A DNA stretch of 64,000 nt from an uncultured Bacteroidota bacterium (GTDB lineage: Bacteria > Bacteroidota > Bacteroidia > Bacteroidales > 4484-276). Within the stretch, counting starts at the first letter, position 1. Every line of letters starts with the position of its first letter. Location: the NCBI GenBank assembly GCA_937950125.1, contig CALFEP010000082.1:39446-103445 (forward strand), read 5' to 3'. Both the position numbers and the translations under genes were made by a program. This document shows, piece by piece, positions 45,090-60,144 of the stretch. The notes below the pieces were generated by a model, which was not told the DNA's origin, did no database searches, and saw only the letters and a list, made by a program, of their open reading frames with translations.

Positions 45090-45829
45090 TTGATTTTGAT
45101 AGCTTTGATAAACAATGACCCGGCGATCTCACGCAGGACCGGTATTTTTTCCAAATTAATGAGAAACGATGCTGAATATCTTGCAACCAATCCGGGAATA
45201 AAAGGGTGCATAAAATCGAATGGTTGGATGTGCACCTGCTCAAAACCGCCCTTCATCAGTTGTTTCTTTAATTTCCATCTGATAAAAGCCGTTTCATCTG
45301 GCGAATCGCCCATTTTTCTTTTCAGGTATGGCCAGTTTTTCTGAAGGGCTATCTGAGGATTTACCATGTTTGGCTCAGTAAAAACAAGTTTTCCGCCAGG
45401 GTTTAAAACCCTGTTAAACTCTCTGATAGCCAAATCAACATCAAGGTGATGAAATACGGATGAGCCAATCAGGATATCAAATGAATGATCCGGGAAAGTC
45501 ATGCTGCAGGCATTCTCCAACCGAAAATCGATACCATTCTCATCATTGTTTTTCCGGGCAATTTCGATCAGGCTTTCCGAAACATCAATGGCTGTAAGGT
45601 GCACATCCATTTTGCTGATTTCAGCGGAGAGCAGGCCGGTACCACATCCAATTTCCAATACTTTCGACCCTGCAGAAATTTCGCTCAAAAGAAAATTTTT
45701 CCTTCGCTGCCACCTGATTTGTCCCGCAGGAGAATCCCAATTCCATATTTTCTGAGGATGGTTGGATGCAAGGAACTGTCCATGATGCTTTTCCCTGTCA
45801 ATTCTTTGATTTAAAGGAATTTTACTCAT
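45083..45829 (-). CDS. Class I SAM-dependent methyltransferase
   Basis: 'VLEIGCGTGLLSAEISK', 'ILIGSSVFHHL' and 'GGKLVFTEPN'. The ATG abuts the stop of the upstream gene (45830). Confidence 0.85.
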   Translation of the reverse strand: MSKIPLNQRIDREKHHGQFLASNHPQKIWNWDSPAGQIRWQRRKNFLLSEISAGSKVLEIGCGTGLLSAEISKMDVHLTAIDVSESLIEIARKNNDENGIDFRLENACSMTFPDHSFDILIGSSVFHHLDVDLAIREFNRVLNPGGKLVFTEPNMVNPQIALQKNWPYLKRKMGDSPDETAFIRWKLKKQLMKGGFEQVHIQPFDFMHPFIPGLVARYSASFLINLEKIPVLREIAGSLFIKAIKIKC

Positions 45830-47848
45830 TTAAAGATAATATCTTAAAAGTAACACACCTATCGTAACACTAAAAAAAACAACTATGTTTAAAAGAACAA
45901 ACGCGGATAATAAGCCCGGCAAAGCATGCAATTTTCTATTGTGCAGCATCAATAAAAACAAAGGTCCGGCAGGAATAAAATATCGCCCTTGTATCCCATA
46001 AATAATTTTGCTGCCCAACGGGGCCCAGGTAGCATAAATAATGGTAAGAACAGAAAGGATAACACCGGCGGCTATGCACGAAATGATGATCTTTTGCCAT
46101 ACCCTAAATCCAAAAACGGCACTTGAGTCAAACAGCGCGGTGATGATCATTGCGAGATAAGCCCAGGATACAAATACAGGCGGAAAAGGCGTGTCATGCC
46201 AGCCCAGATTGCCAACCCATCCCACCGCGTAAGCTTTCCAAAACTGACCAAAAGTACCGACCACTACTGTTATAAATCCTGGCAAATTCTGAAACATCAG
46301 GAGTAGCTGCTTTTCAGGATGAACATCCTGCGGATAACCTTTATTAAAAGCATAAAGGCCATTGGTGACATCAACCTGTCCGAAAACATGTTGTAAATAA
46401 ATGTGATTGATGACCATTGCTGCAACAACTACCGCAAGCGACCCGGAAAACAGGACAAACCACCTGCCTTTTGAGGAAAATCCTGACAATGGAATTATCA
46501 AAATCGAGGCAATCAGCACAAAATAGGCCGTCTTTGACAAAGACAGAAAAAAGGCCATTGTGAGCATCATGGCAATGTTTGCAACAGTAATTTTCCGGTT
46601 TTCAACGAACACAAGTTTAAGCACATAAGCGATGAGAAGAAAAGACAGGCCGTTCGTAAGTCCATCGGGGCTTAATGTCGATGCCTGAAATATGGACATT
46701 GGCATAAGCGGCAACATCACAAAAACCCATTTAAAGACCGGGGTAATGCTGATGGCAAGATAAACCAGGATTATCCAGAAAAGCAGGTTTCCAAGCCGAC
46801 CTGAATAGAAAAGCAACAAGGGTGGCGCATTGAACTGAACCGGCAAAGCCATAAGCAAAGCCTGAGGAGTGTAGGGCACCGGAGTGTACTGGCAACTATT
46901 TGAATGAAATGTAAATATTGTATTTTCCGGATGTAAGGGGATATCAAAATCATTCAGAATTTTCTTAACAGAAACCTTATTCTCCGGGTTAAACGGGATT
47001 TTCTGATATCCCGACGTGAATTGAAAAAAACTTTCAGGCACATTGCCGCCAATCATATTTTCGTTAGCAAACGGCAATATTTTTAGCCTTGAAATCTGAT
47101 AAATCCTGAAAAAATGAAAAAATTCATCCGGAGATTGAAATGGAGGGGTAACAAAAACCAATATCAGCCCCCAGACGACCGCGGCATAAATGAATACCTT
47201 CTGAGGTTTTATACATGTCAGAAAAGGCAACCAGTGAGGCAGGTTTAAAAATAATGCGATAACCCGGTTCCGGATTTCAGAAGAACAGTAAGAAAGTACG
47301 ATGACCACCGCAAACATCAGAAGAATCTTTATGACCAGGAAGAATGCTTTCGTCCAATCGACCTGAAAGTCAATAAATTGCCGGATGTTTTGAGTGAATC
47401 CGATGTGCGAATCACTTCGGGTCGGTCGGACAATCAATTCGTTGTCGTCGAACAACAACCCGATATCGCTGTTCAATGTGGGCACATTGCCCGAAGGGTA
47501 TTCAACGGCAAGGCAGGTTCGATGGTTGTCATGACAAAAGGTGATGCTGTCAACCCTGACTTTAGAGGATTTTGAACCCGGGTCAATCCTCAATTGTCTG
47601 AACCAGCTTCCCGGAATTTCAAATTCAATTTTGCCCGTATTGATACTATCCTTAAAAAAATTAACGGATTCCCGCTCGTTAATTCCAAATCCGGGATTGT
47701 AAAACAACCGAAACATATCCGGCTGACCTCCTGATGAATAAAGGGTTATGGAGGTATTTTGGTAACACGAGGTCCTGAATTCAAAAAAACCATAACCTGC
47801 GATGGCTGCCATGGCCAATATAACCAAGCATTTCCTGATCAGTTTCAT
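45830..47848 (-). CDS. DUF2142-like polytopic membrane protein (GT-C-type candidate) with N-terminal 'FNE...LRIDP' module
   Basis: Start taken at the ATG at 47848 (MKLIRKCLVILAMAA), which forms an ATGA overlap with the upstream stop. 'PPFQSPDEFFHFFRIYQISR' resembles the PDExxH motif of DUF2142 membrane proteins, from memory. More than 12 TM helices. Confidence 0.75.
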   Translation of the reverse strand: MKLIRKCLVILAMAAIAGYGFFEFRTSCYQNTSITLYSSGGQPDMFRLFYNPGFGINERESVNFFKDSINTGKIEFEIPGSWFRQLRIDPGSKSSKVRVDSITFCHDNHRTCLAVEYPSGNVPTLNSDIGLLFDDNELIVRPTRSDSHIGFTQNIRQFIDFQVDWTKAFFLVIKILLMFAVVIVLSYCSSEIRNRVIALFLNLPHWLPFLTCIKPQKVFIYAAVVWGLILVFVTPPFQSPDEFFHFFRIYQISRLKILPFANENMIGGNVPESFFQFTSGYQKIPFNPENKVSVKKILNDFDIPLHPENTIFTFHSNSCQYTPVPYTPQALLMALPVQFNAPPLLLFYSGRLGNLLFWIILVYLAISITPVFKWVFVMLPLMPMSIFQASTLSPDGLTNGLSFLLIAYVLKLVFVENRKITVANIAMMLTMAFFLSLSKTAYFVLIASILIIPLSGFSSKGRWFVLFSGSLAVVVAAMVINHIYLQHVFGQVDVTNGLYAFNKGYPQDVHPEKQLLLMFQNLPGFITVVVGTFGQFWKAYAVGWVGNLGWHDTPFPPVFVSWAYLAMIITALFDSSAVFGFRVWQKIIISCIAAGVILSVLTIIYATWAPLGSKIIYGIQGRYFIPAGPLFLLMLHNRKLHALPGLLSAFVLLNIVVFFSVTIGVLLLRYYL

Positions 47849-49251
47849 CCTGCAAATTTTATTTTCCGTGCAACAAAAAAGCACATTTTCACCAGCAACC
47901 AACCATGCATGAAACGGCTGATCTGGGTGGTTCCATACCTTCGTTCACGGTAACGGATATTCACCTCTGCAATCTTCATGTTTAATTTTGAAGCGCCAAA
48001 AAGAAGATCAAAATCACCAAAAGGATCGAAATCACCAAAATACTGCCTGTTTTTTTTAATTTCTTCATAATCGCTTTTATACAAAACCTTTGTACCGCAG
48101 AGTGTGTCCTTCAACCGTTGCCCCAGCAGCCAACTGAACATCACTCCAAACATTTTATTGGCCATGTAATTCAACAGGCGCATCGACTGTTTTTCCATTG
48201 GGTAAACCAGGCGGCAACCATTGATAAAATCGCCGTGATTGGCAATCAATGCCTGGTAAAACCTGGGTAAATCCTCCGGAGGAACGGTCAGGTCGGCATC
48301 CAGGATCATCAGGACATCACCGGTTGCTGCTTCAAACCCTTCACGGACCGCATTTCCCTTGCCCCTACCCGATTGCATGAATACTTTGATGTCTTTTTCG
48401 GAATATTTGTTTTTCACCCGGACCATTTCATCAAAAGTTCCATCAGTGGATTCGCCGCAAACAAAGACAAATTCCTGGCGCTGACCAAATTGTGGGGTTC
48501 GGCGTATGGCATTTTCAATATTCCCGAATTCATTTTTAGCTGGAATTACCACAGAAACACTTTTTTCTGCAATGTCTGTTTTTACAGGCCTGGCAACAAT
48601 CAAATTCACAAGGTTAAGCGAAGAAATCAACGGCAGATTTGCAAAGAAATGATTCAGCAAATAACTGATTCCCGGAATATTAAATGGAAATAACAACTTC
48701 CGGCTGACGGTTACAATTTCATAATTTTCGAGTTTTAACATTGCGGCAATATCAGCAGTCGAAAGCCAGTTTTGAGTGGGTTGTCGCAGTTTCAGCCGTA
48801 GTTTTTCAGCCAAAAGGTTGTAGGGTTCCCACATAAAATTGTAGTTGGAAATGACCAATCGTGTGTTTGGATGACAGAATTTTCGGGCATTTTTCAGTAC
48901 CTGCTGCACATCCCACAAACTTCCCAACAGGTCGGACATAATGATGTAATCGAAGCTTTCGGTGGCTTCAACATGTATTGCATCGCCAACAACAAAATGA
49001 ATGTGCGGGTGTTTTTCTTTGGCAATGTTGATGATGGTTTCGGAAAAATCCACACCTACACCATATCCCGGCCTTACCGCATTGAGCAGATCTCCTGCTC
49101 CGCAACCCATTTCCAGCACCCGTTTTCCCGGGGGGATGATGAAACACAAATATTTTTTAAGCGAATGGTGGTAATATCGGTTTCTACGATTCCATTTTTC
49201 GCGGTAACGGGCAGTTCGTTCAAAAAAATCTTTCCAGTCGGTTGGTTTCAT
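47845..49251 (-). CDS. Methyltransferase + GT2 fusion (polyprenyl-phosphate glycosyltransferase, DPM1/GtrB-like C-terminal half)
   Basis: N-terminus 'VLEMGCGAGDLLNAV...IIMSDLLGSLWD'. C-terminus 'VSVVIPAKNEFGNIENAI...VFVCGESTDGT...ILDADLTVPPEDL'. ATG at 49251 (MKPTDWKDFF); the track start at 49257 is a TTG. Confidence 0.8.
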   Translation of the reverse strand: MKPTDWKDFFERTARYREKWNRRNRYYHHSLKKYLCFIIPPGKRVLEMGCGAGDLLNAVRPGYGVGVDFSETIINIAKEKHPHIHFVVGDAIHVEATESFDYIIMSDLLGSLWDVQQVLKNARKFCHPNTRLVISNYNFMWEPYNLLAEKLRLKLRQPTQNWLSTADIAAMLKLENYEIVTVSRKLLFPFNIPGISYLLNHFFANLPLISSLNLVNLIVARPVKTDIAEKSVSVVIPAKNEFGNIENAIRRTPQFGQRQEFVFVCGESTDGTFDEMVRVKNKYSEKDIKVFMQSGRGKGNAVREGFEAATGDVLMILDADLTVPPEDLPRFYQALIANHGDFINGCRLVYPMEKQSMRLLNYMANKMFGVMFSWLLGQRLKDTLCGTKVLYKSDYEEIKKNRQYFGDFDPFGDFDLLFGASKLNMKIAEVNIRYRERRYGTTQISRFMHGWLLVKMCFFVARKIKFAG

Positions 49252-49289
49252 GCACAAGATTTTATGCTTGACATTAAAATATTATAGAT

Positions 49290-50670
49290 CAATCAGAAAA
49301 AATAAAAATCAGACTTTGGGAATATTGGGTAATGCAACAAATGCAAATGAGTAGAACGAGGTAAGCGAAATAATAACGATCATCAGTTTGACGAATATGG
49401 ATTTAACAGATTCGTGATTTTTGGTGAACCAAAAACCGAAAACCCCCAATATTGACAATAAATACCTCCCTTGTGGCTGAAAATCGCTGACCCAGGAGAA
49501 ATATGATGACCTGTAAATGATGAAAAATAAAAGGCTAAAAAAATCAAAGGAAGTAGCTTGATTGTGGGAAAACTATGAAGCAGTCTGAATACAACGATGA
49601 ATCCAATTAAGATTGAAATTAATAAAACATGATCTTGTAATTCAATGGATGGCTTTTGATTGACTTATAGCCAAAAACACCAAAAAATGACATAGCGGTT
49701 TTTGTGTGCCAACTCCATTTCTCCGAATACAATTCGGAATACTTAACCCCCTTCTCCTTCAGGAAAAGCCCAAAACAAGATGTTTCAAGAGTTTTTTCAG
49801 CATGTTTGAAACGGGCGTGCGCATATTTTTCCTTGAATTCGGAAATCAATAAACGCCTGTTAAATCCATGCAATTTCACATCATACAAATACCTCGGCAT
49901 CAAAAATAAAAGCGTCAACCCAATTAATGCCAGGCATTTTAGGGAAATCCTTGTCGATTCCCTTTATTATCCACTAAATACAAAAACACGATTATTGCAA
50001 AGAAGACAAGTATCAGGCAAAAATTTTTCTTTGAAAAAATCCGAAGTGCCAACAGGATTGCCATGATTACAGCGCCTTATAATATGGCCGTGGGTTTTGG
50101 GTGAAACAAGAAATTTGTTAAACGAAATGTTATCATTAACAAGCTGGTAAACAACAAGTATCGATAAAAATAAAGCGAACGCATCGGTGTTAACATACGA
50201 AAACAACTACCAGATTTGCGGAGAATTTTGCTAAACCAGTAGCAGGGGCTTTACTTTTCGGCTTCCTTTTAAAAACAGAACCATCAAACTTAAAAACAGC
50301 ACTTTGTTGAATAATCTTATGGATAGCAGCGAATCGTTGACAATGTACCCAACCAGAACCGAGAATTTTCAATTAAAAAATAACAGGGATCAAAATCCGT
50401 CAACCGTGAATGCCCGTAAGCTGAAAAACCTCCCCTGATGTCCGGATCACTTACCACCGGTGTAAGCCAATGATTTTGATACTATGTAACCGCTTCCGCC
50501 TGGACATGTTCATCGGGATGTGCATTGAACCTGCTTGTGACAGCCATCGTAATTATGAACAAAAAGATGATTAAAAAAATGGTGCTTAGTAGCACATTCA
50601 ATCCGGGATGAAGATACCGGCAAACCCGGTTTTTAATGGCAATTAATATCCTGCAGTTTTTGTATTTCAT
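49290..50670 (-). pseudogene. Frameshifted remnant of a second DUF2142-like/GT-C membrane protein gene
   Basis: The N-terminal piece (50482..50670) reads 'LLSTIFLIIFLFIITMAVTSRFNAHPDEHVQAEAV', a TM helix followed by a PDExH motif. Further hydrophobic segments continue in at least four different frames. For example, after the stop at 49619 the frame shifts to 'ISILIGFIVVFRLLHSFPTIKLLPLIFLAFYFSSF...' and then to 'LMIVIISLTSFYSFAFVALPNIPKV'. Confidence 0.5.
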
Positions 50671-52376
50671 AGTTGCCCAATTTCAGATGTTGGAAGCCTG
50701 CCTTCTTTCTTTCCATATTTTATGTAATGAACCAGTGGATTCATCCCAACTTCTTTTACATCAGGATTTTTGGCCAGATAAAATACGGAATCGAATTTTG
50801 TTGACGGATTTCTACTTTCAAAGCCTCCGTAAAGCAGAAAATGCTTTTCCGCATCCATTCCCGATTCTTTAACATCAGGATTGTTTTGCAGGTAAAAATC
50901 CACCTCAAAAAGGCTGCTTTCACCTATCAGGCGGATGTTTCTTTGCAGTGTGATTTTCTTGTTAACCCATCGGTAAAATTTAGCGGGGTGAAGCAGTGAC
51001 AAGCTTTTGGCAAAACGATAAACAGAACTGCGCTTTATAGAAACAATCTCATTTTTGAGCGCTTCAATTTTACTATTTAGTTGGCTTATTTCAATTTGAT
51101 GATGCAATGTTTTCCCAACGAAATCTTCATTGAGCCTTGTCTCCTCAAAATTCATTTGAGCAGACTCATTTTTGAGGTTCCTGGTTTTTTCCTGCCTCTG
51201 TTTAATGATTATTTCGAGTGCATCAAAAACCTTTATTCCAGTCGCCAAATATTCTGCATCTATTCCAACATGGTCAAATTCAACAGTTCCTTCGGTTTCG
51301 ATCAAAATCTGTGGGTCGGAATTTGAAAAATAATAAACCGAATTTTCGACTACACATGCATTTGAAGTGAGACGAAAATTGATAATAACCTCATTTTCGT
51401 TATCGAAAAACCTGATGGACTTTAGCTTTACAACAGCAAAATCGTTGAGCGGATCAAATCTCAGCCTCGAATAACATTGCCCAGTTGGCAATTTAAAAGG
51501 TAATGGATTATTAGAAATTTCGATACACGCCGAATTATCTTCGTTGAAGTCCCTACTTCCGGTTTGATAAAAAAGCTGTGCGAAATATTTTTTTTGGATA
51601 ACGAGGCTTTCGAGAACCTGGGTTGGTAGCAATGAAAGGGTTACCGGATATTTTTGTTTCAGGTAGTAAATGAGGTGTTTAAGCTGGTCGGATTTGAAAT
51701 TCAGCGATTTATTCAAATGGTGAACGCGGTAAAACGACAGTGGTTCCCCCGGAATAAAAGCAACCGTTCCGCCCATTTTGCCCACTCTCAGCCAGAGTTC
51801 ATAATCTTCCCATCCATAAGGTGGCATCATGTTATCATACATTCCAGCTTTTATGAGTTCGAATCTGCGGAACATGGCCATTGCATCAATGTACGGAGCT
51901 TCGAGTAGTTTCAGGTAATCGAAAGGTTGATTTGATCGCAGGCCGCAATTTTCGCCAGTTTCATGTAAAAAATTCTGAATTGAGGCATAACAAGCCATGG
52001 CTTCATGATTTTGCCTCAAGGTGGCAACATGAATCTTCAGGCAATCCTTCCGGATGTAATTATCAGAATCGAGGAAAAATAAAAATTCACCGCGGGCATT
52101 AGCAATTCCACGGTTCCGGCTTGATATCAGCCCAAGGTTGGTTTCATTTTTTATCAGCCTGACAGGGAAAGGGCTTCCTTTCATTATTTCCTCAATTACG
52201 TTAACACTTTCATCAGTGCTGGCATCATCCACAATGATTACTTCCATTTTATCGGATTCAAAATCCGAATTAATCACGCTCTGCAGGCACTGCCCGAGGT
52301 AATGGGCATAATTGTAATTGGGGATGATTACGGAAACAAGCACGCTGTCAGAAGAATTATTGGAGGTGGCAATCAT
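50667..52376 (-). CDS. GT2 glycosyltransferase + 'FNE...LRFDP' module + coiled coil + 2x 'NPDV/NPL.HY' repeats
   Basis: 'VSVIIPNYNYAHYLGQCLQSVINSDFESDKMEVIIVDDASTDES...FLDSDN'. Module at aa 265-385 ('QLFYQTGSRDFNEDNS...YSRLRFDP'). Heptad-rich aa 385-445. C-terminus 'FEVDFYLQNNPDVKESGMDAEKHFLLYGGFESRNP' and 'FDSVFYLAKNPDVKEVGMNPLVHYIKYGKKEGRLP'. Confidence 0.88.
   Translation of the reverse strand: MIATSNNSSDSVLVSVIIPNYNYAHYLGQCLQSVINSDFESDKMEVIIVDDASTDESVNVIEEIMKGSPFPVRLIKNETNLGLISSRNRGIANARGEFLFFLDSDNYIRKDCLKIHVATLRQNHEAMACYASIQNFLHETGENCGLRSNQPFDYLKLLEAPYIDAMAMFRRFELIKAGMYDNMMPPYGWEDYELWLRVGKMGGTVAFIPGEPLSFYRVHHLNKSLNFKSDQLKHLIYYLKQKYPVTLSLLPTQVLESLVIQKKYFAQLFYQTGSRDFNEDNSACIEISNNPLPFKLPTGQCYSRLRFDPLNDFAVVKLKSIRFFDNENEVIINFRLTSNACVVENSVYYFSNSDPQILIETEGTVEFDHVGIDAEYLATGIKVFDALEIIIKQRQEKTRNLKNESAQMNFEETRLNEDFVGKTLHHQIEISQLNSKIEALKNEIVSIKRSSVYRFAKSLSLLHPAKFYRWVNKKITLQRNIRLIGESSLFEVDFYLQNNPDVKESGMDAEKHFLLYGGFESRNPSTKFDSVFYLAKNPDVKEVGMNPLVHYIKYGKKEGRLPTSEIGQL
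50670..50918 (-). repeat. Two C-terminal 'NPDV/NPL.HY...EGR.P' protein repeats
   Basis: See the sequences quoted for 50667..52376. Same repeat family as 26032..26625 and 63772..64000. Confidence 0.8.
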
Positions 52377-53025
52377 AATGAAATGCTTTAAAGTCCTGGT
52401 TGTATATTTCTACAATTCTTTGTCTTGTTTTTTTCGAAATGCGGGGTATGATCTCTGTTTTGCTCAATCCTGTTGAGTTTGCTAAAGGCAAGTTTCGGTT
52501 TTGGTACCTGAAAAGGCCGTTGGTTTTATCGGCAATCAATCGGAGCAATATGTTGAAATCGGCTTTAAAATGCTCGAATCTGCCAACGAAATTAATGGTG
52601 TGATCAACAAATTTTATCTGTGGCTCTTTGTGTGAATTGTTTAAGTCGGACAACACTTCCTCACACCAAAAATCGAAATATTGCGGGTCAAAATCAGCGG
52701 GTGATAAGTATTGCTTGTTGTTTCGCCAAAAAAACTCAGAAAGCAATTTCGTGTAAGGATTTCTCACGAAAGTAAACTTGAAATAATCATCGTAATCACT
52801 GATCAGTTCTTTTAAAACCTCAACAGGATAATGCTGAGGCTCATAAACAAGCTTTGGTGAACTGGACATAATCCGGTGCTTTTCCACAAAACTTTCACAG
52901 TCTCTGTCCCATCTATCAAACCAAAAGTTCCTGGCATGGCAAAGATCAAAGAACTGCTCAATGGAGGTTCCGCCCGTTTTGGGAATATGGACAAAAAGTA
53001 TTTTCTGCTTGGGGTCGAAAGGCAA
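52357..53025 (-). CDS. Sulfotransferase-family protein (PAPS-dependent fold)
   Basis: 5'-PSB-like loop 'FVHIPKTGGTSIEQFF' and 3'-PB-like 'FVRNPYTKLLSEF'. TTG is the only start candidate at this position. The 3' end overlaps the next gene by 20 nt. Confidence 0.7.
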   Translation of the reverse strand: MPFDPKQKILFVHIPKTGGTSIEQFFDLCHARNFWFDRWDRDCESFVEKHRIMSSSPKLVYEPQHYPVEVLKELISDYDDYFKFTFVRNPYTKLLSEFFWRNNKQYLSPADFDPQYFDFWCEEVLSDLNNSHKEPQIKFVDHTINFVGRFEHFKADFNILLRLIADKTNGLFRYQNRNLPLANSTGLSKTEIIPRISKKTRQRIVEIYNQDFKAFHYDCHLQ

Positions 53026-53030
53026 AACTG

Positions 53031-53783
53031 CTATTTTATATGGTTGCGAAACAGCCTTTTCAGGTAATTTCTTTTACTAAAAAATCCGTCATTATCGTTC
53101 GTACCGAATTCATTTTTTAACCGCTCGTTTCTTATTTGCAATGCTTTCTGGTACAATGCCATATCAGTGGCGTGAAAGGATTCTATTTCCCTTTTCAACG
53201 ACTTATCCACGCAATAATGACCATCGCCGGTTCTGTGTACGTTTTCATGGTAAAGCATAAGTTCCTTACCGAAAAATTTATGGCTAAGATATTTTAAATC
53301 AGAGGAGTAATATTCGGTGATTCCGATAAAATCAAAATTTTCGAACGGAAAACCCCAGAAAAACTGCGAATAAACATTCCTGAAAATCTCACAGAGACAA
53401 TATTTTTCGAGTGACCATTTTTCATTAACAATGCGCTGCTGCAATGGTGGCGAAAGTTCGTTTATGTTTCGCAAGGTGTGGTAATAATCCGAAATAATCC
53501 GCTCAACAGGATTGCGCATCCAGGTGATAAAGGTAAGCGGTTTCAGTTCGTTGAGCAACAAAAACTGAACAGGCAAAAAATGGCCATGAATACAATCCAC
53601 GTATTCGTAATTTACCTCTGAGTTTTTAATGGCTGCAAGCAGGGCATTTTTGTTCCGCTCAAAAACAGTTCTGTTAAAAAGCCGGTCGCCGTATTTGAGT
53701 TTTAGCCGATCTCCAAAGCAATCCTTCAAGGCTAACCCGAAACTGGTACCCGCTGTTTTTGGCACGTGTACTGAAATAATCAT
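53031..53783 (-). CDS. Sulfotransferase-family protein
   Basis: 'MIISVHVPKTAGTSF' and 'WMRNPVERIISDYYH' follow the same two-motif pattern as 52357..53025. Confidence 0.7.
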   Translation of the reverse strand: MIISVHVPKTAGTSFGLALKDCFGDRLKLKYGDRLFNRTVFERNKNALLAAIKNSEVNYEYVDCIHGHFLPVQFLLLNELKPLTFITWMRNPVERIISDYYHTLRNINELSPPLQQRIVNEKWSLEKYCLCEIFRNVYSQFFWGFPFENFDFIGITEYYSSDLKYLSHKFFGKELMLYHENVHRTGDGHYCVDKSLKREIESFHATDMALYQKALQIRNERLKNEFGTNDNDGFFSKRNYLKRLFRNHIK

Positions 53784-53850
53784 CTTTTCATCTTTTCAAT
53801 TTCTTATTTTTTAAAGGCTATGATGAAGAACTACCTTTTTACTCATAGCA

Positions 53851-54630
53851 TCATGTTAAATCCCATCGAAACTTTTCACCAATAAGTTTTCTGAGTTCTC
53901 TGGCATCCTGATCAAATAATAAGGATACTTTAATTCTTGTTTCCAAGGTTAAGCCTGGATAAAAATTAGCATTTTTTGGTGTAAGTAATCCGGGAAAAAC
54001 CTCTTTTATCCCTAAAAACCGATAAACAGCATGAAGTTCATTTTCAGGATTTTTAAAAAAATCCTCGCTTTTTATAAACATCATCTGCGAAAGCGGGAAG
54101 TGTTTTAACCACCGGTTAATTTGTCTGGCGTAAAGCCCACGGCTTATGTATGAAAAGCTTTGATGTGCATCGCTCTGTTTAATCCTGCCCGATATCAGGT
54201 ATTCCTCATTTTCGGTTATCCGTTCATTTTCTTTCTCGATGGCCTTTTCAAAGTTTTCGATTATTTCGGTTTTATGCATGCGCTCATGGTGAAAATGCGA
54301 ATAAGCCCTGTCAACCGGATTTCGCAATAAAACAATGAGCTTGATTTTGGGCAGATGGTGGGCAACCCTCTGCGGCACAAGCGGGTGAAATAAATAGTAA
54401 GGACTTGCTTCACCAGCTATGGTACCCCCGAAAAGACCCTTTGACCGGAAAAACTCTTTGTACCATTTCAGACCATTTTCATAATTCAAATCAAAAAAAT
54501 GCACTTCCTTTATAGCTGGCATAAAAACCTTTGGATGTTGACTAAGATAATGGTAAAGCGTGGTTGTGCCTGCCTTTTGGGCGCCAATAATGAGGAAATC
54601 AGGAAGTTGCGAAAATCGAAAAAATGTCAT
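53851..54630 (-). CDS. Sulfotransferase-domain protein (Sulfotransfer_1-like)
   Basis: 'FLIIGAQKAGTTTLYHYLSQHP' (5'-PSB) and 'VLLRNPVDRAYSHFHH' (3'-PB). Typical size of about 260 aa. The ATG at 54630 is the second codon of the track ORF. Confidence 0.85.
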   Translation of the reverse strand: MTFFRFSQLPDFLIIGAQKAGTTTLYHYLSQHPKVFMPAIKEVHFFDLNYENGLKWYKEFFRSKGLFGGTIAGEASPYYLFHPLVPQRVAHHLPKIKLIVLLRNPVDRAYSHFHHERMHKTEIIENFEKAIEKENERITENEEYLISGRIKQSDAHQSFSYISRGLYARQINRWLKHFPLSQMMFIKSEDFFKNPENELHAVYRFLGIKEVFPGLLTPKNANFYPGLTLETRIKVSLLFDQDARELRKLIGEKFRWDLT

Positions 54631-54688
54631 CAATTAAGTTACTGCGAGCTAAATTTGGAGGAAGGTTGCCGATGGAATATTTTGTCCG

Positions 54689-54991
54689 TCAATTTTGTTT
54701 GGAATTTTTACATGAGCACAGTCTAAAGCCTAATTTTTCGCCACTAAATCCTGCAAATCGGGTAAGCCGGTCAAGGTTTTGTTCAATCTGGTCGGAACAG
54801 ATTATCGGCAGCTTTTTTTCTGGATTACCTTCAATCACGGTTTTGTTGTGATAATACCAATATTTCAGGTAACCATCCAGGGTGTAAAGGTTGTTGTCCT
54901 TCATTATCTTTTCTTCGGGCGAGTGTGTGTATAAATCAGGACGATACCTGTAATCCCTGAGTTTTGTCCTGTATTTCGGAAGAAAATCTTT
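54689..54991 (-). pseudogene. Possible truncated C-terminal remnant of a further sulfotransferase-like gene
   Basis: The open frame 'KDFLPKYRTKLRDYRYRPDLYTHSPEEKIMKDNNLYTLDGYLKYWYYHNKTVIEGNPEKKLPIICSDQIEQNLDRLTRFAGF' lacks any PAPS-loop N-terminus and has no convincing start. It loosely resembles sulfotransferase C-terminal halves. Confidence 0.25.
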
Positions 54992-55009
54992 TCATTTATG
55001 TTTTAGAGC

Positions 55010-57805
55010 TTATTTTCTCTTAAACAATGCCATCAATTTACGCAGCGGCTTTGTAATTTTCCACGATCTGCTTAGCAACACTTCATCAAGTATTTGAGCT
55101 GTTGTGGTCAATCCGGCAATTTGTTCGTCCTTTTCCCGTAAGGTTTTTTTAAGAAAATCAATATTATCCTGAATTACATTGGTTTGGCTTTCGTAAGAGG
55201 GGGCAGCAGGCTGATTGATCTCAATAAATGTCACATTAGGAAAAACATCCTTCATCGAATAAGTATAAACAGCCTTTATTTTGTAATAATTGTTTGGGTA
55301 CAAAACAACTTTTTTACCTAAAATACCAGCCAGAATGGCAATGTGAAGCCGGTCGGTTTTTACGGTTTCAAAAGCGCTCAGGTAACAGGCCAGGCTGTGG
55401 GTTACGTTTTTGGCAAAATCGGGGCGGTGCCAGAGTTCGCCATTCCACGAAAGCGAAATATCCACATTGTCAGCAGGAATAACAAACAAACCTGTACTCT
55501 CCATATCTGTCCGGAAACAGTTGGCAACACCTAAACCTTTTTGATGAAAATCCTGAAATTCGGTTTCCGGCAGCAGAAAAGCCATGTCGTGGGCAAGAAA
55601 CAGCCGTTCGGGCGGAAATCCTGCTGCAGCCAGATATTGGTAACTGATTTTTTCCCGGCAAATGATGGTCAGGTTTTTGGCCGAAAGCAACAAATCATCA
55701 TATCCGTGAACCGTGTGTGGCAACAGAATAATCTCCCGGTTTTGCCGGTAATTGTTATTGATGAAGTGAAAAGCATGCCTGTACTTTCCCTCAACCAGGT
55801 TACCCCCTCCACTGTAGAAAACAACTTTGTCCTTCACCACATCTTTGTACCCGATTACCTGAGGCCTGATGTTCAATTTTTCAAACAACTGAAAGGTAGC
55901 ATGTGCCATTATTGCATCACCTGCATTTCCCGGGTTGGCGCAATAAACAACTTCTTGTCCCGGGTATTTTTTCAGAAAATCCTCAATTATTATCTCGTTG
56001 TAGTTGAATAAATCTTTGGAATTTCCATCCATGACGGACTTTTCAGCATTTATCCTGGTAATTTTTAACGAACCGTTTGAACCATCTGCAACAAAATGAC
56101 CATTTACCTGTAACAGAAACTCATCGGTTGCCATTCTGCACCCTTCCCAATCGAAGTAATCGTCAACAATGATACTTCCGCCAGTTGACAATTTTGGAAA
56201 GATAGTTTGAAGGCAGAAAGCAACAGAATCGTACCAGTCAACATCAATGTGGGCGAAAGCGACAGGCTCATCTATTTGCATTGTGGCCCGGATAAGCCCT
56301 TTGACCAACGAAACGGAGTGCGTTTTTGGATCGATGCCAAAGGTGCTGAAATTCGATTGCACAACTTCCAGCAGGTTATCAACATATCCGTAATATTTAT
56401 CCCCGCCAATTCCATTCGATTTTCCATCCGAAATAATATTGTAACGACGGTGAACCTCTTCGGGGTCATTATCTGATGGTGGAGGTATCATCCCAAAAAC
56501 ATCATAGATGAAAAGCTTTCGATGCCGGTTCTTAACAGAAGCAATCAGTATTGATGACCCGCCAAGTGCACAACCCGCTTCAATAAACACACCTGGAATT
56601 TCTGCTTTTTCTATTTCGGAACACGTTGAAGCAATACTTTGAAGCCGTTTTCCGGAAAGATAGGTGAGATTCCGGTCATGTATTTTATTAATAAGCACTT
56701 CTATATTTTCTTTCGAGATTATTTTGGTACGGATGCCGTATTGTTGAGATTTCATTTCATTTAAAAATCGTATGACAGTATTTCTGTCTGCTGTTGGCAG
56801 ATTTGGGATAACACCATCAATAAAATCAAGCGTTTCGCTGCTCCAGACCAAAAAATCGGGTTTTAAATCCTCATTCAAAAAACTGTACTCAGGTAGCGAA
56901 AACTCCCTGCAAAGCCAATTCACATCTTCAGCGTATGCCTGCCAAACTTTACCACTCAGGCCTATTGGGAGCATGAATTTTTGTCCGGGCATTCCTTCAA
57001 AAAGTGTGTTCAATGCTATCATTCTTTCGGGATGTAGTTCATAACCCGATGTTTGCGGAAAGGTTTGGTTGATTGCATTGAGCAGAAGCACAGTTTCGTA
57101 CGTTCTGGTTTGATTGTCCCTAAAAATTTCAGGTTTGATATTTTCGGGTAAACTGCCATCGACCATCTCCAGCAAAGCGCCAGCCGGGCCAAACTTATGA
57201 AGAACAAGATCTTCGTACTTAAGCACAGTAATGTTTTCGCGACCAAAAACCCCTGAAAGCTGATTAAGCAGATTCCGGTACAAACCAGAGCGGCTAAGAT
57301 GGTAATCAGTTGCTTTTCCCATGGTCATACCAAAGTTGCAAATGCTGGCCTGCAGAGCACTCCTGAAGCGTGATACAGGATGCCGGCAAACCATGACAAT
57401 CATGATATTTGCATCGCGGGAGGTGTTTTCTAACAAAAAAGATTTCAGGTTTTCAAGTTCATGTTTGTTAAGATGAGAAATATCTTCTCCCGAAATGATC
57501 AGTGTTTCACCTTCAAAAGCTGATAATTGCTCTTCCATTTGAATGTGATAATTCTGATGAAGCTGCTGGATTGCCTGTGGGGTCGTAAAATCCTGGCTGA
57601 CATTGAAATGGTAAGTTTCGGGCTTTAGCATAAAAAGGCTGTAAAAAGGGATGGAATGGTTGCTGATGGCCGTATTGCCGACTTTGAACACGGGATATAA
57701 AACACCTTCTTCCATTAGTTTGACCCGCTCCCGGTGCAACGTGTTTTGTATGGTGGTGGAAGCGGTTTTATGCACCCCGATGTGGAGTAAAATGGTTTTA
57801 ATCAT
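55010..57805 (-). CDS. 931-aa tri-functional decoration enzyme: sulfotransferase-like domain + TylF-type O-methyltransferase + polysaccharide pyruvyl transferase + coiled-coil tail
   Basis: aa 1-310: 'LLHIGVHKTASTTIQ' and 'VMVCRHPVSRFRSA'. aa 365-585: 'GVFIEAGCALGGSS...HIDVDWYDSVAFCLQTIFPKLSTGGSIIVDDYFDWEGC' (TylF pattern). aa 600-860: 'YCANPGNAGDAIM...TDRLHIAILAGILGKKVVLYPNNYYK' (pyruvyl-transferase pattern). Tail: 'LSRSWKITKPLRKL'. Confidence 0.8.
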   Translation of the reverse strand: MIKTILLHIGVHKTASTTIQNTLHRERVKLMEEGVLYPVFKVGNTAISNHSIPFYSLFMLKPETYHFNVSQDFTTPQAIQQLHQNYHIQMEEQLSAFEGETLIISGEDISHLNKHELENLKSFLLENTSRDANIMIVMVCRHPVSRFRSALQASICNFGMTMGKATDYHLSRSGLYRNLLNQLSGVFGRENITVLKYEDLVLHKFGPAGALLEMVDGSLPENIKPEIFRDNQTRTYETVLLLNAINQTFPQTSGYELHPERMIALNTLFEGMPGQKFMLPIGLSGKVWQAYAEDVNWLCREFSLPEYSFLNEDLKPDFLVWSSETLDFIDGVIPNLPTADRNTVIRFLNEMKSQQYGIRTKIISKENIEVLINKIHDRNLTYLSGKRLQSIASTCSEIEKAEIPGVFIEAGCALGGSSILIASVKNRHRKLFIYDVFGMIPPPSDNDPEEVHRRYNIISDGKSNGIGGDKYYGYVDNLLEVVQSNFSTFGIDPKTHSVSLVKGLIRATMQIDEPVAFAHIDVDWYDSVAFCLQTIFPKLSTGGSIIVDDYFDWEGCRMATDEFLLQVNGHFVADGSNGSLKITRINAEKSVMDGNSKDLFNYNEIIIEDFLKKYPGQEVVYCANPGNAGDAIMAHATFQLFEKLNIRPQVIGYKDVVKDKVVFYSGGGNLVEGKYRHAFHFINNNYRQNREIILLPHTVHGYDDLLLSAKNLTIICREKISYQYLAAAGFPPERLFLAHDMAFLLPETEFQDFHQKGLGVANCFRTDMESTGLFVIPADNVDISLSWNGELWHRPDFAKNVTHSLACYLSAFETVKTDRLHIAILAGILGKKVVLYPNNYYKIKAVYTYSMKDVFPNVTFIEINQPAAPSYESQTNVIQDNIDFLKKTLREKDEQIAGLTTTAQILDEVLLSRSWKITKPLRKLMALFKRK

Positions 57806-57810
57806 TGGAT

Positions 57811-58710
57811 TCAGTTACCCTGATTTAAGACATTTCTGTTTTGATACTCAAGCCTGTGCGCCTGCAGCCAACTCCAAAAGCTCATTTTCCATTGGCTGCC
57901 CAGGAAAAGGTTAAACTCATGGTCGCTGGTTGGCCGGTTATCCTGCCCGCCGTTGGGGTAAATGGTTATTTCCGACAGGTAAAATTGCTGTCGGTCGGCA
58001 AAAAAATCAATCCTCAAAAAGTCAAAATCCCTTCCTAACCTTCCTGCAGCTTCAATCATTTCAGGGAGGAATGGAGGTTTTTCAGGAATTGTAGCTGGTT
58101 CTTTTTCAAAATTGTTTTTCAGATTGAATTTATTCCAGTGCGCATCAAAATACACATTTTCATTGTTTTTGCGCATCGATGATGAGCCAATGCTGATGGC
58201 TGCCACCCTCCCCCTGAAAGTAAAAAGCCTGTAATCCAATATTTCTTTCCCAGGCTCAGGTTCAATGAGTTTTTCCACAAAAACTGCCGGCGGGATATTA
58301 TTGTAAGCCCATTCGATGGGGCGGTATCTGGTTTGCAACCATAAGTGGCAGATGTCGATAACCTCGTTGGGCTTGAGTTTTTTCAGCGCCTTGTTTTCAA
58401 ATTCATAAAAACCGCTGCTGGCAACACAATTTTCGCCATTAAAAAAGTCATAAAACTGCATCCCATATTTCAGGATATTCCAGTTGCAGCCATGGTTGGC
58501 TTTGATGAAACATTTTTCGGGCAAATCGCCGAAAGGAATGGTTTCGGGGTTTTGAGTTACAAAAATCACCTCTGCCGATTTTACTCCCTTTTCTGCAGCA
58601 TATTTCTTAACAGCCAGTTTATCCTGCATCATTGTAAACAGCGGATTGTGGTCGTTTTTCATGCGCCAGCGGATTTTGGCGGCCAGAGTGAGTTTGTTGA
58701 ACAATGCCAT
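57811..58710 (-). CDS. TupA-like ATP-grasp amidoligase
   Basis: 'LAAKIRWRMKNDHNPLFTMMQDKLAVKKYAAEKGVKSAEVIFVT' and the overall 299-aa layout match the TupA-like ATP-grasp family, from memory. Confidence 0.65.
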   Translation of the reverse strand: MALFNKLTLAAKIRWRMKNDHNPLFTMMQDKLAVKKYAAEKGVKSAEVIFVTQNPETIPFGDLPEKCFIKANHGCNWNILKYGMQFYDFFNGENCVASSGFYEFENKALKKLKPNEVIDICHLWLQTRYRPIEWAYNNIPPAVFVEKLIEPEPGKEILDYRLFTFRGRVAAISIGSSSMRKNNENVYFDAHWNKFNLKNNFEKEPATIPEKPPFLPEMIEAAGRLGRDFDFLRIDFFADRQQFYLSEITIYPNGGQDNRPTSDHEFNLFLGSQWKMSFWSWLQAHRLEYQNRNVLNQGN

Positions 58711-58716
58711 TACAAT

Positions 58717-59367
58717 TTATGGGGGACTAAATTTAAATAGTTCATAATCAGTTGCAACTTCCAACAAATCGACATTTGGCCTGATATTAAACACAGCCAA
58801 AGTATCTGCTTTTTCAATTTCGGAAAGATATTTCAGCACTTCATGATAGCGTGGCCGGTTGTAAAAATCGTGGAATAGAATTTTTAAACCGGAATTTTTG
58901 TGGCAATGCAAAATTGTTTGTAAAACACTTGCAACCCTGAAACGGCCATCGATCAGCACACAATCAACTTTGGAAACATCAATTTTTTTGAAAATACCCG
59001 AAGAATAGTCGGGGAAAGAAAGCTTATGTTGTGTGTCAACAGGATAGCCCCATTCTTTGGTATTGCCAATATTTGCATAATAAATTGAAAGCCGTTTCAG
59101 TAAATGGAACCGGATAAACCAGTATTTTTTTAGTTTTCTGATCCATTCGAAATCCGATTCAACACTGTAAACCTTTGCTTTTGTGTTAGATAAGGCCAAA
59201 AATGTACTTCCACCCATTCCAAATTCCAGGTAGTAACCGGACTTTTTGATGTGCCTGACAAAAAGTTCACTTTCAACAGGCTTCATGAGCGCTTTTACAT
59301 CAGGTTTGTATGAAAATCTAACAGGTAAATGCATAACTTTTACATCAGTAAAAAAATGGTTCTGCAA
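58717..59367 (-). CDS. Putative SAM-dependent methyltransferase (small Rossmann-fold, DUF579/TylF-like)
   Basis: 'YYLEFGMGGSTFLALSNTKAKVYSVESDFEWI' and 'VDCVLIDGRFRVASVL'. The track start is a TTG; an ATG at 59334 is an alternative. Confidence 0.55.
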   Translation of the reverse strand: MQNHFFTDVKVMHLPVRFSYKPDVKALMKPVESELFVRHIKKSGYYLEFGMGGSTFLALSNTKAKVYSVESDFEWIRKLKKYWFIRFHLLKRLSIYYANIGNTKEWGYPVDTQHKLSFPDYSSGIFKKIDVSKVDCVLIDGRFRVASVLQTILHCHKNSGLKILFHDFYNRPRYHEVLKYLSEIEKADTLAVFNIRPNVDLLEVATDYELFKFSPP

Positions 59368-59525
59368 ATGGGGTAATCGTATTTCAGCATCGATAGGATG
59401 CTAATACTGGCCTTCTGACCCATCACAAAAACCAATTTGGAAATCCTCATGAAGCTCTTTATTTCCGTGGTTAGTATTTTGAACCTGATGAAAATGTTTA
59501 AATGTCCTGCTGGTCAGGATAACTT

Positions 59526-59720
59526 TTAGATAATAGTCCTGATTTGGGGAAGTGGACTGGTCAGATAACATGAATTAGAATCCATGATCTTTCTTATCAT
59601 TTCATTTGCATGGTTGAATTGATTCGCAATAGCCCGGGTTTGAATTCCGATTTCATGTGTTGACTTCTCAAGTTCAGCGATTTTTTGATTTTCGGTGACG
59701 CATTTCCTATTTTCCAGCAT
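59526..59720 (-). pseudogene. Remnant of a coiled-coil 'S.SW.IT.PLR'-type C-terminal tail
   Basis: 'ENQKIAELEKSTHEIGIQTRAIANQF...IMDSNSCYLTSPLPQIR' resembles the tails of the 931-aa protein (LSRSWKITKPLRKL) and of the first module of the 997-aa protein. No catalytic domain is attached. Confidence 0.3.
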
Positions 59721-59907
59721 GATTCGTTGATCATAACCGGCAAGAAAAAAATGAAGTTGCCATACTTTTCATCATCCGGCAGGTTTCGCCACAAGTAGTA
59801 AAGGATTTATCTGAAAGTCACAGATTCCTCACAAACCGCATGTACACCAGATGAATTGGAAATATGATAAATACCCGTGATTTCATCATGATGACAGAAT
59901 GTTGTTT

Positions 59908-60144
59908 TCATCGCTGTCGTATGAGAAAATCCCAATCTTCAAAGACATCGGACTGCTCGTCAAACCGGCATTTCAGCCTGATTAATTCACTCTGAAACAG
60001 CAATGCATGAATTGGAATAAATTTTTCAACCAACATTCTTTCAAAGATGAACCCTTCATTGTATAATTTTTTCAGATCACCGCTCAGGTTCAACGCTTTA
60101 ATCGCAAGATAGGCCACAAATGCGACGTGGTTTGGCGGGCTTGC
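59908..60144 (-). pseudogene. Remnant of the C-terminal part of a GT2 glycosyltransferase
   Basis: '...IHALLFQSELIRLKCRFDEQSDVFEDWDFLIRQR' looks like the GT2 '...FDE...(E/D)D.D(F/L)..R' block. The frame is closed by TAG just upstream, and there is no DxD or N-terminal half. Confidence 0.35.

Follow-up and report, generated by a model that had tools for sequence, protein, structure and literature searches.

We analysed a 64,000-nucleotide stretch of DNA (the window; part of contig CALFEP010000082.1) from an uncultured Bacteroidota bacterium, in which three adjacent genes, denoted ST1, ST2 and ST3, encode proteins of sulfotransferase families. An earlier note, drawn from the sequence alone, had described three consecutive stand-alone sulfotransferase genes here and a fourth domain of this kind fused into a neighbouring gene, denoted ORF4, whose N-terminal domain we call ORF4N. 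The three open reading frames (ORFs) were found between 52357 and 54630, and all of them scored above the Pfam cut-off. The genes of this module are the following.

52357..53025, minus strand: ST1, 222 amino acids (aa), Sulfotransfer_2 family, soluble
53031..53783, minus strand: ST2, 250 aa, soluble, of a mostly unannotated family resembling heparan sulfate (HS) 2-O-sulfotransferase (2-OST)
53851..54630, minus strand: ST3, 259 aa from ATG, Sulfotransfer_1, HS 3-O-sulfotransferase (3-OST)/N-sulfotransferase (NST) type, soluble
50667..52376, minus strand: GT2 glycosyltransferase, 569 aa, Pfam PF00535 E=2.1e-34
54689..54904, minus strand: 71-aa ORF between ORF4 and ST3, a gene call in four independent metagenome contigs
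55010..57805, minus strand: ORF4, 931 aa, multi-domain modifier
57811..58710, minus strand: TupA-like ATP-grasp enzyme, Pfam PF14305 E=7.3e-23, directly upstream of ORF4

The module is tightly packed. ST2 and ST1 are separated by 5 bp and ST3 and ST2 by 67 bp, while ST1 shares a 20 bp overlap with the downstream GT2 gene, which is translationally coupled to it; ST1-3 and the GT2 gene are probably co-transcribed. Upstream of ST3, the order is a 216-aa ORF, 6 bp, the ATP-grasp gene, 5 bp, ORF4 and 376 bp containing the 71-aa ORF, for which there is no family match on record. ST3 could also start at an alternative TTG (53851..54633), and the ATG version is the product called in independent metagenome assemblies. 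In ST1, ST2 and ST3 we detected no hydrophobic segment that could serve as a signal peptide or membrane helix. When ST1-3, ORF4 and their neighbours were scanned with NCBIfam, none of the sulfotransferases was matched. A scan of 49000..61000 for sigma-70 promoters and terminators, which does not cover Bacteroidota promoters, gave counts not above those of shuffled sequences, and an Rfam scan of the whole window returned no match and thus no RNA-based hint on taxonomy or regulation.

The earlier note had also quoted, for all three proteins, loops of the type that binds the 5'-phosphosulfate of 3'-phosphoadenosine 5'-phosphosulfate (PAPS) and motifs of the 3'-phosphate type, and each of these peptides was located at the expected position. 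On the Pfam sulfotransferase models, ST1 and ST2 were assigned to Sulfotransfer_2 and ST3 to Sulfotransfer_1. In ST1, the loop HIPKTGGTS spans residues 13-21 and FVRNPYTKLLSEF residues 86-98, with His65 as the candidate base. ST1 matched Sulfotransfer_2 (PF03567) with E=2.3e-20 and 74.2 bits against a cut-off of 22, over profile positions 5-252 of 252, and K16, T20, S21, H65, R88, P90 and S96 were invariant in an alignment of seven family members. As a single sequence, ST1 found weak matches only in the PDB, to steroid and bile-salt SULTs (SULT2A1, E ~0.008), and the seven-sequence profile found nothing meaningful there, its best match being a spurious sperm protein. Since the PDB searches were uninformative, the assignment of ST1 rests on Pfam and on the conservation of its motifs.

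ST3 carries AQKAGTTT at residues 17-24, LLRNPVDRAYSHF at residues 101-113 and, as the candidate base, the Glu of GEASPYY. It scored 97.6 bits against Sulfotransfer_1 (PF00685; E=1.1e-27, cut-off 22) and 56.4 bits against Sulfotransfer_3 (PF13469; cut-off 27). Its PDB matches were human HS 3-O-sulfotransferase-3A (1t8t, E=2.4e-29), the bacterial sulfotransferase 3rnl (E=5.7e-28) and NST, the sulfotransferase domain of NDST (1nst, E ~1e-23). The segments QKAGTT, GEASPYY and RNPVDRAYS of ST3 align to KKGGTR, EKTPSY and RDPVTRAIS of 3-OST-3, and the Glu of EKTPSY (Glu184) is the catalytic base of that enzyme. Routine Pfam annotation would already name both ST1 and ST3 sulfotransferases.

ST2 belongs to a less familiar family. 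Its motifs are HVPKTAGTS at residues 6-14, His66-Gly-His68, and WMRNPVERIISDY at residues 88-100, and its best PDB sequence match was chicken HS 2-O-sulfotransferase (HS2ST; 3f5f, E=1.4e-4), in which the IHGH of ST2 is aligned to YHGH. In HS2ST, His142 is the catalytic base. Among the 541 detectable homologues of ST2, almost all are named "hypothetical protein". In the alignment of 30 diverse members (A1), P8, K9, T10, A11, G12, S14, H66, H68, R90, P92, R95 and S98 were invariant, and these are exactly the residues expected in a sulfotransferase. The AlphaFold model of ST2 (AF2), built on A1, was confident (pLDDT 89, pTM 0.84), and when it was compared with the PDB by Foldseek, the best 11 matches were all sulfotransferases. 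The first was HS2ST (4ndz, E=1e-5), followed by HS 6-O-sulfotransferase, SULT1A3, 3-OST and 3rnl, while adenylate and guanylate kinases appeared lower down; the structure prediction that the earlier note had called for thus placed ST2 in a sulfotransferase fold before a kinase one. The homologues are spread across many phyla, including Gammaproteobacteria (Oceanimonas, Dyella, Luteimonas, Halieaceae), Planctomycetota, Cyanobacteria, Saprospiraceae and bacteria of the candidate phyla radiation.

The neighbouring ORF4 combines three kinds of domain.

56744..57805, minus strand: ORF4N, aa 1-354, divergent sulfotransferase-like domain
56117..56665, minus strand: middle domain, aa 381-563, TylF-type S-adenosylmethionine (SAM)-dependent O-methyltransferase (PF05711 E=2.4e-23, PF13578 E=2.2e-6)
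55010..55927, minus strand: C-terminal part, aa 627-931, polysaccharide pyruvyl transferase (PF04230 E=7.8e-14, aa 627-749)

The protein ends in a short coiled-coil-like tail (within 55010..55130) that closes with SRSWKITKPLRK, and the GT2 protein of 50667..52376 holds a resembling segment, EISQLNSKIEALKNEIVSIKRSSVYRFAKSL; the two may be a shared membrane-association or assembly motif. The same GT2 protein carries at its C-terminus two copies of a repeat of ~30 aa, Y(Y/L)xxNPDVxxxGxNPxxHYxxxGxxEGR, which also occurs twice at the N-terminus of a 1154-aa GT4-GT2-GT1 protein (60532..63996, minus strand).

In ORF4N, we located GVHKTASTT (residues 10-18), N49-H50-S51, S105-G-E107-D and CRHPVSRFRS (residues 140-149). 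In the alignment of 35 family members (A2), H12, T14, N49, H50, S51, S105, E107, R141 and P143 were invariant, and K13 and S149 were conserved in at least 90%. N49-H50-S51 may be equivalent to the catalytic-base position. The claim of a fourth sulfotransferase domain therefore stands in part: the motifs are present and conserved, whereas ORF4N reached only 17.7 bits against Sulfotransfer_3 (PF13469), below the cut-off of 27, and it had no NCBIfam match. Used as a profile against the PDB, A2 gave a sole significant match, the sulfotransferase 3rnl (E=1.9e-7), with the CurM sulfotransferase next. The AlphaFold model (AF2) of ORF4N had a pLDDT of 91.8, and its best eight Foldseek matches were sulfotransferases (TPST1/2 and 3rnl; E 4e-5 to 1e-3), with low TM-scores of 0.3-0.57 and with P-loop kinases and zeta toxins close behind. 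In a profile-profile comparison of A2 with A1 (hhalign), the probability was 1% and only the 3'-phosphate-binding region was aligned, so that the ORF4N and ST2 families are not demonstrably close to each other.

The ORF4N family is large, with 28,393 representatives at E<=1e-3 and 13,465 at E<=1e-10 in a HMMER search of 1.84 billion representative proteins (individual representatives carry P-numbers below). Its members are mostly stand-alone proteins of 380-420 aa devoid of any Pfam match, many contain 2-4 tandem copies (four in the 1676 aa of P0316), and the domain is often fused to Sulfotransfer_1, _3 or _4 domains or to GT1/GT2. Among the family members tested (from P0316-P0454), nothing rose above the cut-off in Pfam or NCBIfam except for P0442, whose ORF4N-type domain just passes the Sulfotransfer_3 cut-off (27.3 bits against 27). 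Considering these comparisons, ORF4N is a divergent sulfotransferase-like domain, probably related to sulfotransferases. ST2 and ORF4N are the parts that standard annotation misses, and they represent two large under-annotated sulfotransferase families.

The composition of ORF4 is mirrored in other loci that we fetched (relatives and flanking regions, denoted by L-numbers). On the metagenome contig L098, the sulfotransferase-like part and the part made up of TylF and pyruvyl transferase are two adjacent separate genes, from which we conclude that ORF4 joins functionally linked modifiers by gene fusion. On two further contigs, the neighbours of a stand-alone ORF4N-type domain again include a pyruvyl transferase and additional sulfotransferase genes, and L097, one of the two, also has a TupA-type ATP-grasp gene next to the ORF4N homologue and a giant RgpF-glycosyltransferase protein.

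The module is embedded in a glycan locus, which was examined by Pfam scans of 37 larger ORFs of the window, including every ORF of at least 150 aa that is not nested inside a longer gene. From ~11.8 kb up to the right-hand edge of the window, almost all long ORFs run on the minus strand, and the majority serve glycan synthesis or decoration; together they form a glycan locus at least 50 kb long with its genes in one direction. The exporter and the decoration genes are listed here.

40514..41335, minus strand: Wzm, ABC-2 permease, Pfam ABC2_membrane E=3.7e-19
41351..42667, minus strand: Wzt, ABC ATPase with Wzt_C, ABC_tran E=6.9e-21, Wzt_C E=1.1e-14 (55.1 bits against 30.4)
44337..49257, minus strand: two SAM methyltransferases, a DUF2142 membrane protein, and a methyltransferase with a GT2 resembling polyprenyl-phosphate-hexose synthases, by Pfam
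45830..49257, 18013..20642, 57811..58710 and 30665..34198, minus strand: further decoration machinery, by profile scans

Both exporter genes of the Wzm/Wzt locus that the earlier note had recognised were confirmed, and the Wzt carries Wzt_C. The components of a Wzm/Wzt pathway found here are the permease, the ATPase, Wzt_C and a polyprenyl-phosphate initiating transferase of the WecA/MraY type (Glycos_transf_4), which ends at 762 in the window and is 429 aa long when read on the full contig; no chain terminator was recognised. The decoration genes of 44337..49257, whose NCBIfam matches to AglJ/ArnC-like models were below the cut-off, sit between wzt and the sulfotransferase module. Other genes of the locus encode RgpF (rhamnan-synthesis) domains, many GT2 and GT4 proteins, giant proteins of 1011-1265 aa with multiple glycosyltransferase domains, Acyl_transf_3, a pair of MBOAT and AlgX proteins for O-acetylation, a FemAB/GNAT and GT2 protein, and acetyltransferases, and the glycan is possibly of the rhamnan type. 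The 1154-aa protein mentioned above extends to the edge of the window, and to the right the locus goes on with a 1770-aa PIG-L and glycosyltransferase protein, further GT2 genes, an acetyltransferase gene and another DUF2142 gene.

Several observations on this surrounding are added for completeness. The GtrB/AglJ-like methyltransferase-GT2 protein and DUF2142 protein of 45830..49257 (minus strand) suggest side-chain glycosylation after export, the MBOAT and AlgX pair suggests O-acetylation, and the TupA-like ATP-grasp enzyme and the FemAB/GNAT domain suggest amino-acid addition; the locus probably yields a glycan with unusually heavy decoration. An odd operon passenger, a 1054-aa Eco57I/MmeI-like type IIG restriction-modification protein (37293..40457, minus strand; HSDR_N, Eco57I, N6_Mtase and TaqI_C), is flanked by a 1011-aa GT2-GT1 gene and by wzm, the gaps being 7 and 56 bp. 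To the left of the window (L091, 1..9972), a second glycan-export locus contains an ABC-2 permease, a GDP-mannose 4,6-dehydratase, an epimerase/reductase, a Poly_export (Wza-like) protein, a GT4, a sensor/response-regulator hybrid and the full-length initiating transferase of the WecA type.

The Ffh protein encoded in the window has 82-86% identity with database proteins under the names "MAG: Bacteroidales bacterium", "Bacteroidetes bacterium" and "Lentimicrobium sp." (MAG, metagenome-assembled genome), which bears out the assignment to Bacteroidota as sound. The exact proteins of the module were found in metagenome assemblies only, the longest carrier being a 112-kb contig (ENA ERZ724084 NODE_137). 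The closest genome match to ST2, at 78% identity, was in the Bacteroidales MAG isolate Tobar13m-G16 (L010), where the order is wzm, wzt, GT2 and, further on, homologues of ST3 (65%), ST2 (78%) and ST1 (68%), an ST1-like gene and a GT2 gene (46%). A contig from JGI with a T9SS-tailed neighbour (L006) has the order ST2, ST1, ST1-like and GT2 (40%), together with two Sulfotransfer_3 genes, a sulfatase-family gene and a Wzy-like gene. As such, a few environmental Bacteroidota share the block of GT2, ST1 and ST2, with or without ST3, as a conserved module. Sulfatase-family (PF00884) and radical-SAM genes occur within sulfotransferase-bearing glycan loci on L006 (1559..9165) and L008 (15654..17843); these PF00884 proteins could be phosphoethanolamine-transferase-like or true sulfatases that edit the product.

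Taken all together, we consider it likely, with a probability of roughly 70%, that ST1, ST2 and ST3 are cytoplasmic PAPS-dependent carbohydrate O-sulfotransferases of three subfamilies that sulfate the glycan of the locus before its export by Wzm/Wzt. Pathways that depend on an ABC transporter assemble the complete polymer on undecaprenyl diphosphate, on the cytoplasmic side, before Wzm/Wzt export it (PMC9445017, PMC3482155). Because the polymer is completed in the cytoplasm before export, soluble PAPS-dependent enzymes would reach both the donor and the acceptor, and the lack of hydrophobic segments in ST1-3 fits such cytoplasmic action. Since the three proteins belong to different subfamilies, they probably represent three regio- or sugar-specificities. 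In the mechanism that we propose, the neighbouring glycosyltransferases would assemble the polymer at the inner membrane, on its cytoplasmic side and attached to a polyprenyl carrier, and ST1-3 would O-sulfate the nascent glycan with cytoplasmic PAPS at up to three or four distinct positions. ORF4 would add methyl and pyruvyl groups and possibly a fourth sulfate, and Wzm/Wzt would export the modified polymer. After export, the DUF2142 and GtrB-like pair would attach a side-chain sugar and the MBOAT/AlgX pair an acetyl group. The donor, the acceptor, how many positions carry sulfate, and a timing ahead of export are predicted here from the genes, and the organism probably makes a sulfated surface glycan. 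The multiply sulfated polymer that the earlier note had put forward is one reading of the module, as the sulfate may partly be a terminal cap.

Several points weigh against this interpretation. ST2 passes the Sulfotransfer_2 (PF03567) cut-off only marginally (E=5.5e-5, 23.9 bits against 22), and a homologue in Subsaxibacter sp. CAU 1640 (L075) lies outside a glycan locus, between Trk and DcuC genes. The close homologues are known from sequence, from which the acceptor sugars and positions would not be predictable. There is also the matter of PAPS supply: as the earlier note had stated, PAPS-supply genes are absent from the window (37 ORFs, Pfam), and this holds for ~10 kb on each side as well. 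Neither cysD, cysN, cysC or cysQ, nor genes for ATP sulfurylase, adenosine 5'-phosphosulfate (APS) kinase, 3'-phosphoadenosine 5'-phosphate (PAP) phosphatase or sulfate permease, turned up in the 37 ORFs scanned in the window or in the genes called on its flanks (L091 and L093). Co-located PAPS genes are regarded as a hallmark of sulfated-polysaccharide clusters by the authors of one study (PMC11641403), and of the two elements in their definition of such a cluster, a sulfotransferase and PAPS-synthesis genes inside it, only sulfotransferases are present here. However, the paper on the synechan cluster lists no PAPS-synthesis genes (PMC8205485), so that co-location is not a universal criterion. 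In other genomes, PAPS genes do accompany three members of the ST2 family. In the Wzx-type polysaccharide locus of a Draconibacterium MAG (L089), the ST2 homologue has an APS kinase gene (219 bits) 5 kb upstream; in a Balneolaceae MAG (L088), the ST2 homologue has CysD and CysN genes 3-5 kb upstream; and in the complete genome of a Candidatus Moraniibacteriota member (L059, 7137..10672), a CysQ-like gene of the inositol-monophosphatase family (PAP phosphatase type) lies between wzt and the ST2 homologue. These are independent genomic support for the use of PAPS by the ST2 family.

Among the alternatives, the one that survives best is that sulfation is mainly a terminal, chain-ending cap or export signal, with a sulfotransferase or ORF4 acting like WbdD of E. 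coli O9a and Wzt_C reading the non-reducing end; we regard it as unlikely. The Wzt of the window has Wzt_C, which in the studied systems recognises a chemically modified terminus (PMC9445017, PMC3482155), and since Wzt_C recognises a capped non-reducing end elsewhere, the locus should encode a capping enzyme. ORF4, multi-domain and with its coiled-coil-like tail, has a suitable layout, and wzt is found near sulfotransferase or sulfotransferase-like genes in several unrelated genomes: an ORF4N-like gene follows wzm and wzt in L027, wzt stands directly before the ST2 homologue in a Saccharibacteria MAG (L068, 8736..10672) and in L081, and it lies ~1 kb upstream of that gene in L025; in L059, which like L068 comes from the candidate phyla radiation, the order is wzt, cysQ and ST2. 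In Oceanimonas (L017 and L018), a wzt with Wzt_C is followed by a Sulfotransfer_1 gene that overlaps its stop codon. In P0320 (1076 aa), two ORF4N-type domains replace Wzt_C behind a Wzt ATPase that is 40% identical to that of the window over 243 aa. On the other hand, three or four different sulfotransferases exceed the needs of a single cap, and in the window their genes lie 10 kb from wzt and are coupled to a GT2 gene. The methyltransferases of the locus are equally good capping candidates, the papers retrieved on Wzt capping describe no sulfated cap and do not mention sulfate, and gene adjacency is suggestive at most; a Wzt-like ATPase occurs within 10 kb in 12 of the 80 genome loci of the ST2 family, a bare count given without a background rate.

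The adjacencies nevertheless suggest, at a low probability, that some Wzm/Wzt systems may use sulfation to cap the chain end or to signal export. Similarly doubtful is a wider form of this idea, in which sulfation would be mechanistically coupled to Wzm/Wzt export in many bacteria, the ORF4N-type family would be a WbdD-like capping module working with small HS2ST-like and 3-OST-like enzymes, and the non-reducing end in our locus would bear sulfate, methyl and pyruvyl groups.

The Oceanimonas loci are of interest in their own right. Both O. smirnovii ATCC BAA-899 (L017, 9995..19153) and O. baumannii ATCC 700832 (L018) are cultured type strains with an ST2 homologue, and in both the order is the ST2 homologue, a 596-aa ORF lacking a Pfam match, wzt (Wzt_C), the Sulfotransfer_1 gene, a gene for a 1026-aa protein and a GT2 gene. 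The 1026-aa protein combines a sub-threshold Sulfotransfer_3 match with GT25. A literature search for the lipopolysaccharide chemistry of Oceanimonas found none. Because its ST2 homologue lies outside a glycan locus, Subsaxibacter is a poorer cultured model from the Bacteroidota, and Oceanimonas is the better cultured model of the two.

A less probable alternative is that the sulfotransferases are passengers, which act on a lipid, a small metabolite, a peptide or a protein-linked glycan and not on the glycan of the locus. The position of the Subsaxibacter gene is in line with this, bacterial sulfotransferases with glycolipid or lipo-oligosaccharide acceptors such as NodH and Stf0 do exist (PMC11625862), and the weak PDB matches of ST1 are only to steroid and bile-salt SULTs. 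However, the tight operon coupling to the GT2 gene and to glycan-modifying enzymes, the conservation of the GT2-sulfotransferase module beside wzm/wzt in relatives, and the polysaccharide sulfotransferases that are the best sequence and structure relatives of ST2 and ST3 argue against it. Finally, it is very improbable that one or more of the four domains, above all ORF4N and perhaps ST2, is another P-loop enzyme or a catalytically dead binding module: ORF4N does fall below the Pfam cut-off in a family without Pfam or NCBIfam names, with low TM-scores, kinases and zeta toxins close behind and a 1% match between A2 and A1, but its loop lacks the kinase Walker A GxxxxGK[ST] and keeps K-T/G-x-S/T-T together with R-x-P-x(5)-S, the only significant PDB match of A2 and the best 8 and best 11 fold matches of ORF4N and ST2 are all sulfotransferases, and the domain occurs fused to Sulfotransfer_1, _3 and _4 and passes the Sulfotransfer_3 cut-off in P0442. 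The HMM and structure comparisons that the earlier note had proposed as a way to expose a non-sulfotransferase P-loop family placed ST1-3 by HMM, and ST2 also by fold, among the sulfotransferases. A reading of the motifs of ST1-3 and ORF4N as those of ordinary Walker-A NTPases was likewise rejected, given loops devoid of GxxxxGK[ST] and fold and profile searches that rank sulfotransferases first.

We compared the window with systems already described. Sulfotransferase-bearing polysaccharide clusters are known from cyanobacteria, Vibrio, Cobetia and Pontiella, the last with a putative sulfated-polysaccharide cluster (PMC7356697), and the window is a further example. The synechan xss cluster of Synechocystis sp. 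PCC 6803 encodes two sulfotransferases and Wzx/Wzy, and further cyanobacterial clusters are of the Wzx/Wzy and ABC types (PMC8205485). Like the window, they combine several glycosyltransferases with more than one sulfotransferase from distinct subfamilies (PF00685, PF03567 and PF13469), and in synechan the count of sulfates roughly equals that of sulfotransferase genes (PMC8205485). Unlike the window, the xss cluster lies on a megaplasmid, uses Wzx/Wzy, has its own regulators and makes a product chemically shown to be sulfated, whereas the window, known from genes alone, belongs to Bacteroidales and has Wzm/Wzt with Wzt_C, three sulfotransferases and a sulfotransferase-like fusion.

Two gammaproteobacterial systems also export their glycans by an ABC transporter. 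The capsule/O-antigen region of Vibrio sp. KMM 8419 contains three sulfotransferases, cysNDC and a Kps ABC exporter (PMC11641403), and the capsule cluster of Cobetia marina KMM 1449 contains a sulfotransferase, cysN/C, cysD, cysQ and a sulfate permease (PMC11766843). They share with the window an ABC-exported glycan, sulfotransferases dispersed among glycosyltransferase genes and a very large locus (theirs are of 70-80 genes and make rhamnose-containing glycans), and an RgpF-type protein is mentioned for the Vibrio cluster. They differ from it in their KpsMTED export, their own cysNDC inside the cluster, their gammaproteobacterial hosts and their solved polymer structures.

The individual proteins have known counterparts as well. 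ST3 shares fold and cofactor motifs with HS 3-OST and NDST, and ST2 with HS 2-OST, although the alignment of ST2 with HS2ST covers ~125 residues only and the structure-based identity is 17-19%. In contrast to the animal HS sulfotransferases, ST1-3 lack a Golgi membrane anchor and are short, soluble proteins of the cytoplasm, and the acceptor would not be heparan sulfate, because the locus has no heparosan synthase. The WbdD/Wzt system of E. coli O9a resembles the window in its ABC-transporter pathway and in the C-terminal binding domain of Wzt (PMC3482155, PMC9445017). WbdD and ORF4 are alike in being multi-domain, with a methyltransferase, a P-loop-type domain and a coiled-coil-like tail, and in L027 and L017 the modifier follows wzt. 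WbdD is a kinase and methyltransferase that adds methyl-phosphate, whereas ORF4 comprises sulfotransferase-like, TylF and pyruvyl transferase domains; the two are likened by domain layout and not by homology, and a capping role of ORF4 may be hypothesised from this analogy. What distinguishes the window from the known clusters is its phylum, the number and diversity of its packed sulfotransferases, Wzm/Wzt with Wzt_C, the lack of co-located PAPS genes and the tri-functional ORF4.

Bacteroidota are mainly known as degraders and consumers of sulfated glycans. Our literature search found no paper on the synthesis of sulfated glycans by Bacteroidota, and in a survey of MAGs from a mat metagenome the PF13469 sulfotransferase was present in no Bacteroidetes MAG (PMC9723792). 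Bacterial sulfated polysaccharides have been reported from six genera according to a 2024 review (PMC11625862), and bacterial polysaccharide sulfotransferases are almost uncharacterised. Sulfated glycoconjugates are abundant in aerobic and anaerobic granular sludge, where the producers and enzymes were not found using reference sulfotransferases (PMC10483923). That the ST2 and ORF4N families are annotated as "hypothetical" would explain why such producers go unnoticed. The window places three different carbohydrate-type sulfotransferases, packed into one compact module, in an uncultured Bacteroidales lineage related to Lentimicrobium, and their small size and solubility make these enzymes candidates for sulfating glycans enzymatically. 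If the linkage between wzt and sulfotransferases is real, it would be a new kind of export signal for the O-antigen ABC-transporter model. If the capping reading is true, the window would give the Bacteroidota their first case of an ABC-exported surface glycan that is sulfate-capped or heavily sulfated, and such loci could be the missing producers of sulfated glycoconjugates in anaerobic granules and sediments. The module credibly points to an anaerobic Bacteroidales lineage with sulfated glycans on its surface.

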